Origin: an uncultured Prolixibacteraceae bacterium
GTDB taxonomy: Bacteria; Bacteroidota; Bacteroidia; Bacteroidales; FEN-979
DNA length: 64,000 nt
Direction of reading: 5' to 3'
Assembly: GCA_964455285.1 (NCBI GenBank)
Contig: CAYVVG010000003.1
Coordinates: 16,051-80,050, forward strand
This document shows, in pieces, positions 48,878-56,226 of the stretch. Made by a program: the position numbers and the translations under genes. The notes under the pieces were generated by a model. The model worked only from the letters and a program-made list of their open reading frames with translations. It had not been told where the DNA came from and ran no database searches. Numbering within the stretch: the stretch's first letter is position 1; each line of letters opens with the position of its first letter.

Positions 48878-49858
48878 CTAACCCCTGCACCCCTTCCCTA
48901 CCAGTAGGGAAGGGGACGGGGGATGGGTAAAATGTTTATAGACACGCTGAATACCTTCCCGGATCCCGGTGCGCGGACTCCATGAGAAGGCCTTCGAGGC
49001 CCGGGTGATGTCGAGTACGTTCAGGGGGACGTCGAACTGCCTTCCCTCCCGGAAGGTCACCTTCACTTCGATGCCCGAAACATTGCGGATGATGGCGATG
49101 ATGTCGTTCAGGCTGTGCCCCTCGCCGCTTCCGATGTTGAACACATGATCGGCGGTCTCAGTCTGAAGTGACCGGGTGAGGACTTCGTTCACGTCGTCGA
49201 TGTAAATGTAATCGCGCACCACGCTGCCGTCGCCCCACACTTCGATCTCCTCCCCCCGGATCGCTTTCCGCAGAAACACGGCGATCACGCCCTGCTGGCC
49301 GAATGGGTTCTGGTGCTCGCCATAGGGGTTGGAAAGCCGGAACACCCGGCAGTTCAGCCCGTAGTTGCGGCGGTACAGGCTGCAATAGCTCTCGATGGCG
49401 CTTTTGATGATGCCGTAAGAGTTGAGCGGGACCAGCGGGTGCGATTCAGGGATCGGGAGGATGGCGGGAATGCCGTACACCGTACCTCCGGAGGAGATGA
49501 AATTGAACGAGCGGATCCGGTTGCCGTTGCGGCACTCTTCGAGCAGCCTGACCGTCGAAACCAGGTTGGACTCGATGTCGAACACGGGATTCGACATCGA
49601 GACCGCGGGGATCGTCGAACTTACCAGGTGAAAAACATGATCGATGCCCACGAGGGCGGCGGCTACATCCTGCCGGTTCTGAAAATCCCCCTCCCGGATC
49701 TCGACCTGGTCCTTTATCTTTTCAAGGTTCCGCGTCGAAAAGTTCCGGATATCGAAGATCCTGACATCGTAACCGGCCTCAAGCAACGACCCGGCCAGGT
49801 GGGACCCGATGAACCCCCCCCCTCCCAGCAGCAGGCATTTCAGTTTCGTCTCACTCAT
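48878..49858 (-). CDS. NAD-dependent epimerase/dehydratase (UDP-sugar 4-epimerase-like)
   Basis: 326 aa. Rossmann motif CLLLGGGGFIGSHL, catalytic YGIIKSAIE (YxxxK). The start overlaps the stop of the giant ORF (ATGA). Confidence 0.8.
   Translation of the reverse strand: MSETKLKCLLLGGGGFIGSHLAGSLLEAGYDVRIFDIRNFSTRNLEKIKDQVEIREGDFQNRQDVAAALVGIDHVFHLVSSTIPAVSMSNPVFDIESNLVSTVRLLEECRNGNRIRSFNFISSGGTVYGIPAILPIPESHPLVPLNSYGIIKSAIESYCSLYRRNYGLNCRVFRLSNPYGEHQNPFGQQGVIAVFLRKAIRGEEIEVWGDGSVVRDYIYIDDVNEVLTRSLQTETADHVFNIGSGEGHSLNDIIAIIRNVSGIEVKVTFREGRQFDVPLNVLDITRASKAFSWSPRTGIREGIQRVYKHFTHPPSPSLLVGKGCRG
48890..48915. repeat. REP-like hairpin CCCCTTCCCTA-CCAG-TAGGGAAGGGG inside the last codons of the epimerase ORF
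   Basis: Perfect 11-bp stem with the same CCAG loop as the copy at 40291-40314. It encodes the tail ...PPSPSLLVGKGCRG. Confidence 0.85.
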
Positions 49859-55800: not shown

Positions 55801-56226
55801 GCGTTTATCGTCCCTGGCCGAATGGGATTGACGGATGAGGATATCATCCTGGTGCCCGTCCCACCGGCGGGACCAATTCTCGTTGGCCCAGCACAGGCAG
55901 AAGGGAAAATCGGGCTTGCCCGATGCCAGCATCTCATCGAGCGGACGGTGAAGCAGGCGTTTGCCGTTGAAATAATAGTAGTAGTAACAAAAACCGTATA
56001 TTCCATGCTCCCGGGCCAGGCGTGCCTGGGCCTCCCTGGCCTCGGGAAGCCGGAGGTCATAAAACCCGAGGTCGGCCGGGAGATGCGGCTGGTAATGTCC
56101 CGGGAACAAGGGTTTCGCGGCGGTCACATTCGTCCATTCCGTAAACCCGGCCCCCCACCAGGCATCGTTCTCCGGGATCGGGTGGAATTGCGGAAGGTAA
56201 AAAGCGATCAGGCGGACGTCGTTCAT
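49855..56226 (-). CDS. 2,123-aa multidomain protein: WbsX-like domain, long coiled coil, degenerate GT-A-like domain, two GT-B (GT4-like) domains and a C-terminal GT2 domain
   Basis: One uninterrupted ORF. I counted the residues, and they total 2123. Domain motifs are listed in the findings. All long plus-strand ORFs across this span are low-complexity shadow ORFs. Confidence 0.85.
   Translation of the reverse strand: [2123 protein letters not shown]

Follow-up and report, generated by a model that had tools for sequence, protein, structure and literature searches.

A giant WbsX-headed multidomain glycosyltransferase with a putative coiled-coil ruler in an uncultured Prolixibacteraceae bacterium

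Introduction

The subject of this study is a single giant gene carried on a 64,000-nucleotide (nt) stretch of DNA from an uncultured Prolixibacteraceae bacterium (NCBI GenBank assembly GCA_964455285.1, contig CAYVVG010000003.1, positions 16,051 to 80,050 of the forward strand), which in its full length is referred to here as the window. The gene is an uninterrupted open reading frame (ORF) with an ATG start, encodes a protein of 2,123 amino acids (aa) and sits in a glycan cluster that spans ~41.5 to 63.8 kb of the window. A first-pass annotation, made from the sequence alone, had placed this ORF correctly at 49855-56226 without stating its strand, which is now fixed as minus. The six distinct regions described at that time are all present, however, the count was too low, and the protein consists of five enzyme-like modules together with a coiled coil, a junction module and a linker (Table 1). 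We propose that it probably serves as terminator, ruler and polymerase in one chain for a lipid-linked surface polysaccharide that is made in the cytoplasm and belongs to the ATP-binding cassette (ABC) transporter-dependent "capped glycan" type.

Systems of this type have two hallmarks, namely a coiled-coil protein that bears a terminator at its distal end and a carbohydrate-binding domain on the transporter component Wzt, by which the cap is read (PMC11231755). The polymerase modules can be part of the same chain as the terminator, as in WbbB of O12 and ORF6 of O7, or they may belong to a recruited partner, as in WbdD/WbdA (PMC11231755). Seen from the coiled coil, the polymerising glycosyltransferase (GT) modules lie towards the membrane, and WbdD carries an amphipathic helix at its membrane-proximal end (PMC11231755). 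In the window protein the coiled coil (aa 351-703) has a WbsX domain (aa 6-349) at its distal end, and the polymerising modules, two of them GT4 and one GT2, lie on its C-terminal side, which is predicted to be membrane-proximal.

Integrity of the giant ORF

The giant ORF is real and not a chimera, because collinear orthologues at 45-50% identity occur in independent assemblies. One is P0002 (2,005 aa, 50% identity, 100% coverage), which occurs in two ENA assemblies and one from JGI; the other, P0003 (2,013 aa, 45% identity), comes from an Alphaproteobacteria metagenome-assembled genome (MAG) at NCBI (NCA77621.1). The G+C content is even along the ORF and its flanks, and the stop of the giant gene overlaps the start of the downstream short-chain dehydrogenase/reductase (SDR) epimerase gene by 4 nt. 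That the ORF is an assembly chimera or a set of frameshift-joined genes is a rival explanation to which we attach next to no probability. The one observation in its favor was that a relative seemed to be split into two genes of 583 and 915 aa; otherwise no support for it was found. That relative, a Bacteroidales MAG (DAOPYL010000159.1, L087), holds the closest relative of the middle region (56% identity), and its split was rejected as evidence of a fusion artefact because the break is a scaffold gap, a run of 100 N at L087 1754-1853. The relatives thus speak for one gene, as both P0002 and P0003 keep the full architecture collinear. The domain order had not been recognized in the first-pass annotation, however, it is not unique, as it recurs in full in P0002, P0003 and the Bacteroidales MAG.

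The domain searches that had been suggested as a check were also run, and Pfam models above curated cut-offs matched four of the earlier domain calls, with WbsX, the GT4 halves and GT2 all recovered. Pfam coverage of aa 350-1250 was nil. The giant protein contains no transmembrane (TM) helix, with no stretch sufficiently hydrophobic for one, and no signal peptide. A promoter scan gave nothing beyond shuffle expectation.

Table 1. Positions of the giant ORF, its modules and other genes of the glycan cluster and window.
Feature	Position in window	Strand	Size, support or similarity
Whole giant ORF	49855..56226	(-)	2,123 aa; identical protein is P0001 in NCBI, on a 111-kb contig
Head, WbsX/GH99-like TIM barrel (aa 6-349)	55180..56211	(-)	Pfam PF14307, E 9e-134; NEWAEG motif with E329, E332
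Coiled-coil spacer, putative molecular ruler (aa 351-703)	54118..55176	(-)	353 aa; heptad periodicity, NCBIfam
In-frame tandem repeat in coiled coil (~aa 464-498)	54732..54836	(-)	Period 21 or 42 nt (one or two heptads), 2.5-3.2 copies
Junction ("C") module (aa 704-760)	53947..54117	(-)	Starts SWRLTRPLR; putative membrane-interface anchor
Pro-rich linker (aa 785-812)	53791..53874	(-)	Sequence composition
GT-A-like domain "D" (aa 813-1050)	53077..53790	(-)	AlphaFold2 and PDB fold match
GT-B/GT4 module "E" (aa 1051-1420)	51967..53076	(-)	PimA-like; Pfam, PDB
GT-B/GT4 module "F" (aa 1430-1810)	50797..51939	(-)	Pfam, PDB
GT2 (GT-A) module "G" (aa 1811-2123)	49858..50796	(-)	DD 1850-1851, SDD 1903-1905
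SDR epimerase/dehydratase	48878..49858	(-)	72% identical to equivalent at P0002 locus
Stand-alone WbsX paralogue	47725..48804	(-)	359 aa; 42% identical to head, 65-79% to relatives' equivalents
Partner GT4	46563..47747	(-)	394 aa; 65-68% identical across relatives' clusters
GT8-like protein, directly upstream of giant gene	56307..57353	(-)	348 aa; PDB 3TZT, E 3.9e-6, residues 8-224
GT2 plus C-terminal stretch	57359..59398	(-)	679 aa; weak Glycos_transf_1 match, E 1.2e-4, below Pfam cut-off
Single-TM paralogues	42948-43877, 45483-46508	(-)	309 and 341 aa; no family match
Protein between the single-TM paralogues	43878-45464		528 aa; five TM segments, weak sulfatase/LtaS-like domain
Polytopic membrane protein	59616-61646	(+)	676 aa; ~9 predicted TM segments and C-terminal soluble part; no Pfam/NCBIfam match
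Four SDR-type sugar-nucleotide epimerase/dehydratase genes within or next to the cluster (one also listed above)	37866-38816, 48878-49858, 61665-62747, 62744-63805	(+), (-), (+), (+)	Below NCBIfam equivalog cut-offs

The WbsX head

A WbsX/GH99-like signature had been seen at aa 1-350, and the Pfam family PF14307 (Glyco_tran_WbsX) matches there with 446.8 bits against a gathering cut-off of 25.1, covering model positions 1-349 of 350. An AlphaFold2 model of the head was built from a 24-sequence alignment (pLDDT 83, pTM 0.87) and compared with solved structures by Foldseek. The top matches were OpGH99A (5NGW) and the GH99 endo-alpha-mannosidases of Bacteroides and human (MANEA), with E values of 1e-10 to 1e-7 and TM scores of ~0.6, and GH71 enzymes came next. 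The similarity in sequence is marginal. A phmmer search of PDB with the head returned no match, and a profile of the head alignment reached E 0.11-0.23 against Bx/BtGH99 and E 1.8e-4 against OpGH99A, hence the head falls outside CAZy family GH99 by both phmmer and profile. In the profile comparison the 16-residue stretch of the window protein that contains NEWAEG aligns to ITSFNEWHEGSQIEP of Bt/BxGH99 (NEWHEG motif). Both E329 and E332 are invariant (24/24 aligned WbsX sequences), and they are spaced by three residues, as are the E333 and E336 that appear in the PDB titles of GH99 catalytic variants. The glutamate pair of NEW-x-EG is catalytic in GH99, where PDB titles name the variants E333Q and E336Q. 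The head is best described as GH99-like in its modeled fold and in its NEW-x-EG glutamate pair, not in sequence membership. The two groups also differ in where they work, with GH99 enzymes (BtGH99, BxGH99 and human MANEA) acting on mannosides outside the cytoplasm, whereas WbsX domains are cytoplasmic parts of biosynthetic proteins.

This likeness raises the possibility that the head is a GH99-type endo-glycosidase or transglycosylase which, instead of capping the chain, cuts or trims it during growth at a fixed distance from the membrane. Its fold is nearest to the GH99 endo-alpha-mannosidases and the glutamate pair is invariant, while the best PDB relative, OpGH99A, lacks the pair and reads NNWNIG at that position, so its retention in WbsX looks selected. 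A trimming head is nonetheless improbable in our view. The domain is cytoplasmic, lacking both a signal peptide and a TM helix, and a cut would leave the chain with an end that can still be extended and would therefore not stop growth. In addition, relatives hold group-transfer enzymes at the head position and no precedent for a trimming head was found. The earlier suggestion that the protein could synthesize a complex polymer and perhaps also trim or cap it is neither rejected nor favored as regards trimming, and a cap fits with WbsX being placed beyond the coiled coil, at its far end.

The coiled coil and the junction module

The coiled-coil-like stretch noted at ~355-703 in the first-pass annotation is borne out by heptad periodicity over aa 351-703. 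The hydrophobic periodicity power at 3.5 residues is 3.32 in this region compared with 0.24 +/- 0.23 in shuffled sequences, none of which equaled it (0/500), and the other five domains of the giant protein are without this signal. NCBIfam adds an SMC-type coiled-coil match at aa 433-703, and the proline plus glycine content of the stretch is 2-8%. Among orthologues the coiled coil varies from 172 to 353 aa with the heptad periodicity kept throughout, the window protein having the longest of its family (353 aa) and the relatives 172-248 aa. If continuous and fully extended, at 0.15 nm per residue, the 353 residues would span ~50 nm. The tandem repeat within the coiled coil suggests that a ruler could be lengthened by whole heptads; with a repeat period of one or two heptads, its length can change simply while the register is kept.

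The coiled coil is followed by the junction module. A 26-residue stretch that had been read within aa 704-745 is present as written at aa 705-730. The module is aromatic and basic in composition (9 K/R, 2 D/E and 9 F/W/Y in 61 aa) and is not a TM helix. It holds the most amphipathic 18-residue stretch of the giant protein, with a helical hydrophobic moment in the 99th percentile (top 1%), and it is a putative membrane-interface anchor. When 1.84 billion representative proteins were searched with a profile of the junction, only 32 matches were obtained, ~10 of which span the whole module. The Pro-rich linker that had been noted after it was located as well.

The glycosyltransferase modules

Domain D had been described as resembling a GT-A domain in which the usual DxD is missing, and this description stands with moderate confidence. 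It has no Pfam match, and a sequence search of PDB with aa 703-1055 (junction, linker and domain D) gave nothing usable. Its alignment comprises six sequences; a word-indexed search with aa 700-1055 returned one protein, with Pro-rich words probably swamping the candidates. The AlphaFold2 model of aa 790-1055 from these six sequences has a mean pLDDT of 64 with a core of 70-92, and its matches in PDB are the GT-A enzymes hyaluronan synthase, WrtF, K4CP and SpsA (E ~1e-7, TM ~0.5). The DxD slot reads MHPG (aa 883-886) here and LHPD, LDDS, LNAG or NKP in relatives, and the earlier slot for a nucleotide-binding Asp is also variable, whereas D988 in a Y/H-D-L motif is invariant. Because neither the DxD nor the nucleotide-binding Asp slot is conserved, domain D is either a metal-independent GT-A enzyme or a non-catalytic pseudo-enzyme. 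WrtF is a published example of the former (PMC12595478).

The three modules that follow are easier to place. Two GT-B/GT4-like modules had been proposed, and Pfam families above cut-offs together with PimA- and BshA-type structural relatives agree with this. Module E contains Glyco_trans_1_4 at aa 1250-1385 and its nearest solved structure is PimA (E 5e-7); its C-terminal Rossmann half is clear at these positions, and the N-terminal half is suggested by length and by the PimA match. Module F has both Rossmann halves, Glyco_transf_4 at aa 1506-1597 and Glycos_transf_1 at aa 1614-1787, and is nearest to GT4 enzymes of the BshA type (E 8e-11). Module G is the canonical GT2 that had been expected at the C-terminus, matching PF00535 at aa 1817-1947 (E 2.6e-26, 93 bits against a cut-off of 23.3). 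Its closest solved relative is the chondroitin polymerase K4CP (E 3e-18), with D1850-D1851 and S1903-D1904-D1905 aligned, so that both the DD and SDD motifs are in place. From their motifs and matches, modules E, F and G look catalytically competent.

Family architecture and exchange of the head

Seven segments of the window protein were mapped on the best 120 of its 4,243 homologues (E <= 1e-10). All 120 carry PF14307 and they range from 1,169 to 3,222 aa, hence giant proteins that combine WbsX, GT4 and GT2 are common rather than peculiar to this genome. An N-terminal WbsX followed by a coiled coil and the junction is present in only seven of those listed (P0001-3, P0007, P0008, P0010 and P0011), and what comes after the junction in these seven is a variable set of GT modules, F-G, D-E or D-E-F-G. 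The WbsX domains in head position are ~70% identical among themselves, compared with ~50% identity to the WbsX modules of polymerase cassettes and 42% to the stand-alone paralogue in the window.

Other relatives that bear the junction have a different head. The 1,756-aa protein P0122 is 48% identical over 1,487 aa to aa 635-2113 of the window protein, a span that runs from the end of the coiled coil through modules C-D-E-F-G, and its head is methyltransferase-like (weak Methyltransf_11 match, E 4e-5) and sits on a short coiled coil of ~70 residues. Methyltransferase heads are also found in P0123, P0126 and P0129, while P0125 (639 aa) consists of WbsX, coiled coil and junction alone, a WbdD-like layout. 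In wider relatives the head position is taken by methyl, sulfate and pyruvate transferases. The head is thus an exchangeable module on a common chassis, because junction-bearing relatives show either WbsX or a methyltransferase on the same chassis, and WbsX fills the slot that is held elsewhere by methyltransferases.

The transporter in relatives

A Wzt with the carbohydrate-binding domain Wzt_C is encoded directly upstream in 6/6 junction-bearing relatives outside Bacteroidota whose upstream DNA is readable (P0002, P0003, P0007, P0125, P0122 and P0129), and Wzm is present too wherever the contigs of these six extend far enough. The carbohydrate-binding domains of the Wzt proteins beside WbsX heads (L001, L002, L086 and L089) are 61-72% identical to one another, compared with 22-31% between these loci and those with methyltransferase heads (L088 and L090). 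The fall is shallower for the Wzt ATPase domains, at 85-90% within the WbsX-head set vs. 62-72% across head types. This pattern fits a binding domain that tracks the cap, in a comparison that is confounded by phylogeny. Together with the swapping of heads, the co-variation of the Wzt binding domain lends indirect support to a cap added by the distal domain that may be required for export.

A proposed mechanism for chain-length control

Under the mechanism that we consider probable, the junction module would lie at the membrane interface and domain D, the two GT4 modules and the GT2 module would extend the non-reducing end of the chain near the membrane, aided by separate WbsX, GT4, GT2 and GT8-like enzymes. 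The 353-residue coiled coil would hold the N-terminal WbsX head off the membrane, so that only chains of sufficient length could reach it. The head would then modify the end of such a chain, with the addition of a capping sugar as the most likely reaction, and this cap would halt growth and mark the chain for export. The domain anatomy, the conserved architecture, the swapping of heads and the association of relatives with a Wzt that has a carbohydrate-binding domain are observations, and the ruler function, the membrane anchoring, capping by WbsX and the export route in this genome are inferred.

A bolder reading of the head is that WbsX represents a new class of chain terminator, in which cytoplasmic GH99-type chemistry, with the glutamate pair and neighboring-group participation, caps, or cuts and caps, the non-reducing end of the lipid-linked polymer. 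We regard this as speculative and rather doubtful at present. If true, a non-Leloir enzyme with a hydrolase fold would perform the length-setting step, and the very large, uncharacterized WbsX family would gain its first assigned role.

Several observations weigh against a capping head on a ruler. The first group concerns the position of WbsX. A contiguous WbsX-GT4-GT2 cassette is found in most homologues (~110/120 listed), and in those cassette homologues that were sampled an N-terminal sulfotransferase, pyruvyltransferase, GT2 or RgpF domain and a spacer precede it. In P0128 the order is methyltransferase, coiled coil, junction and then WbsX, which places WbsX past the junction. Because of the cassette fusions and the order in P0128, WbsX is usually a polymerase-side module and not a dedicated terminator. 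Its fold and glutamate pair belong to a hydrolase family, not to a Leloir transferase, and no paper assigning an activity to any WbsX protein was found in the literature searched. The coiled coil and the amphipathic anchor are predictions from sequence statistics. The second group concerns export. No Wzm/Wzt pair with Wzt_C was found within the 64-kb window; the scanned ORFs gave no ABC_tran or ABC2_membrane match, and its six frames contain no LSGGQ motif. Similarly, P0011, the other Bacteroidota relative with readable upstream DNA, has no Wzm/Wzt at that position. The missing transporter is the main gap in the argument as it applies to the window genome.

A rival reading is a plain multi-module polymerase, in which all five enzyme-like modules, WbsX included, add sugars to every repeat unit and the coiled coil merely oligomerizes or scaffolds the protein, with neither ruler nor terminator. 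The cassettes are in line with this, as are the second WbsX gene nearby and a window that is without a Wzt bearing a carbohydrate-binding domain. Such a polymerase would, however, have one of its repeat-unit enzymes placed 170-350 coiled-coil residues away from the rest, and it sits uneasily with methyltransferase heads in place of WbsX on the same chassis and with Wzt plus Wzt_C, a capped-glycan hallmark (PMC11231755), beside all six of the readable relatives outside Bacteroidota. We therefore consider a plain polymerase unlikely, if still a rival to be taken seriously, and retain the terminator, ruler and polymerase assignment as the probable one.

Partner genes and the wider neighborhood

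The first-pass annotation had supposed that the giant protein could act on its own, and this is not supported. Separate WbsX and GT4 (65-79% identical) and GT2 (43-46%) genes always accompany the giant gene, and because these stand-alone genes are conserved beside its relatives the giant protein does not appear to work alone. In the window the GT2 partner is the N-terminal domain of the 679-aa protein, which shows the 43-46% identity to the GT2 gene of the relatives' clusters. The 348-aa GT8-like protein has no Pfam match even at E <= 1 and no counterpart in the seven relatives' loci compared.

Membrane proteins are also encoded in the cluster. The P0003 and P0008 loci hold homologues of the two single-TM paralogues (30-37% identity). 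A 668-aa protein of the P0011 cluster (L083 12882-14888) is homologous to the 676-aa polytopic protein (22% identity over 607 aa, E 2e-18), which may serve as a GT-C-like or export component in those Bacteroidota versions without an adjacent Wzm/Wzt. The cluster also encodes a 470-aa protein with a weak methyltransferase match.

A 251-aa membrane ORF at 40400-41155 (-), on the border of the glycan cluster, was considered as a candidate Wzm and rejected, as it is a short YidC/Oxa1-type insertase (60KD_IMP, E 2e-38). A longer overlapping ORF call in another frame, at 40407-41222, is probably spurious. Elsewhere in the window, four large proteins carry C-terminal sorting domains of the type IX secretion system, at 7353-9704 (+), 9732-11852 (-), 11880-14186 (-) and 26433-27767 (-); SprB repeats are present in two of these and BNR/sortilin-type propeller repeats in one, and the four proteins identify the genome as one of Bacteroidota. 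At 18507-24203 (+), consecutive genes for a molybdopterin oxidoreductase, an NrfD-type membrane subunit, a sulphur-transport protein and a rhodanese suggest a module resembling polysulfide or thiosulfate reductase.

Significance

WbsX (PF14307) is very common in bacterial polysaccharide loci, and here it is placed where proven terminators sit in WbbB, ORF6(O7) and WbdD. The methyltransferase-headed twins are natural controls, with which the function of WbsX becomes testable via the cap, the chain length and export. Ruler lengths in the family range naturally from 172 to 353 residues, a series with which the molecular-ruler model can be tested outside enterobacteria. For annotation, the lesson is that such giant "glycosyltransferase" ORFs are organized assemblies with a recognizable grammar and not fusion artefacts.

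Comparison with known systems

The first-pass annotation had already likened the protein to multidomain enzymes such as WbbB in ABC-transporter-dependent pathways, and this proves apt. WbbB of Klebsiella pneumoniae O12 and Raoultella terrigena has an N-terminal terminating GT, a coiled-coil ruler and C-terminal GTs in one chain. It is a protein of ~1,100 aa with a coiled coil much shorter than that of the window protein. Its head is a GT99 beta-Kdo transferase, whereas that of the window protein is a GH99-like WbsX TIM barrel, and it has two polymerase modules compared with four, the likeness between the two proteins being one of description and not of sequence alignment. WbbB is also accompanied by an ABC transporter, unlike the giant protein in its 64-kb window, and in the WbbB system the carbohydrate-binding domain of that transporter reads the cap (PMC11231755).

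ORF6 of K. pneumoniae O7 shares the order of terminator, coiled coil and GT modules in one chain. Its head is composed of a methyltransferase and a kinase (with a carbohydrate-binding-like domain) and its polymerase of two GT2 modules, which brings it closer to the methyltransferase-headed P0122 and P0129 than to the window protein. In terminator mutants of O4 and O7 the polymer is long, stays inside the cell and is not exported. An extra stand-alone GT is needed for polymerization in the O7 system (PMC11231755). In WbdD/WbdA (Escherichia coli O9a and K. pneumoniae O3) the shared part is a terminator on a coiled-coil ruler that ends in a C-terminal amphipathic membrane helix, with WbdA as a multi-GT4 mannosyltransferase polymerase. 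This system differs from the window protein in that terminator and polymerase are separate proteins and the terminator is a kinase-methyltransferase; the relative P0125 mirrors the split WbdD layout. A further parallel, by description only, is the O-antigen glycosyltransferase "wbsX" of Burkholderia gladioli, which exceeds 1,450 aa and is encoded in a cluster with Wzt (PMC13391952). Truncations of that gene led to phage resistance and an altered outer membrane (PMC13391952).

The overall design is therefore already known, giant WbsX proteins are abundant in public data and the exact protein has already been deposited. What appears to be new, in a comparison that did not extend to the 2019 terminator census, is a polymerase of four modules whose likely terminator slot holds a GH99-like WbsX domain and which has methyltransferase-headed twins built on the same chassis.

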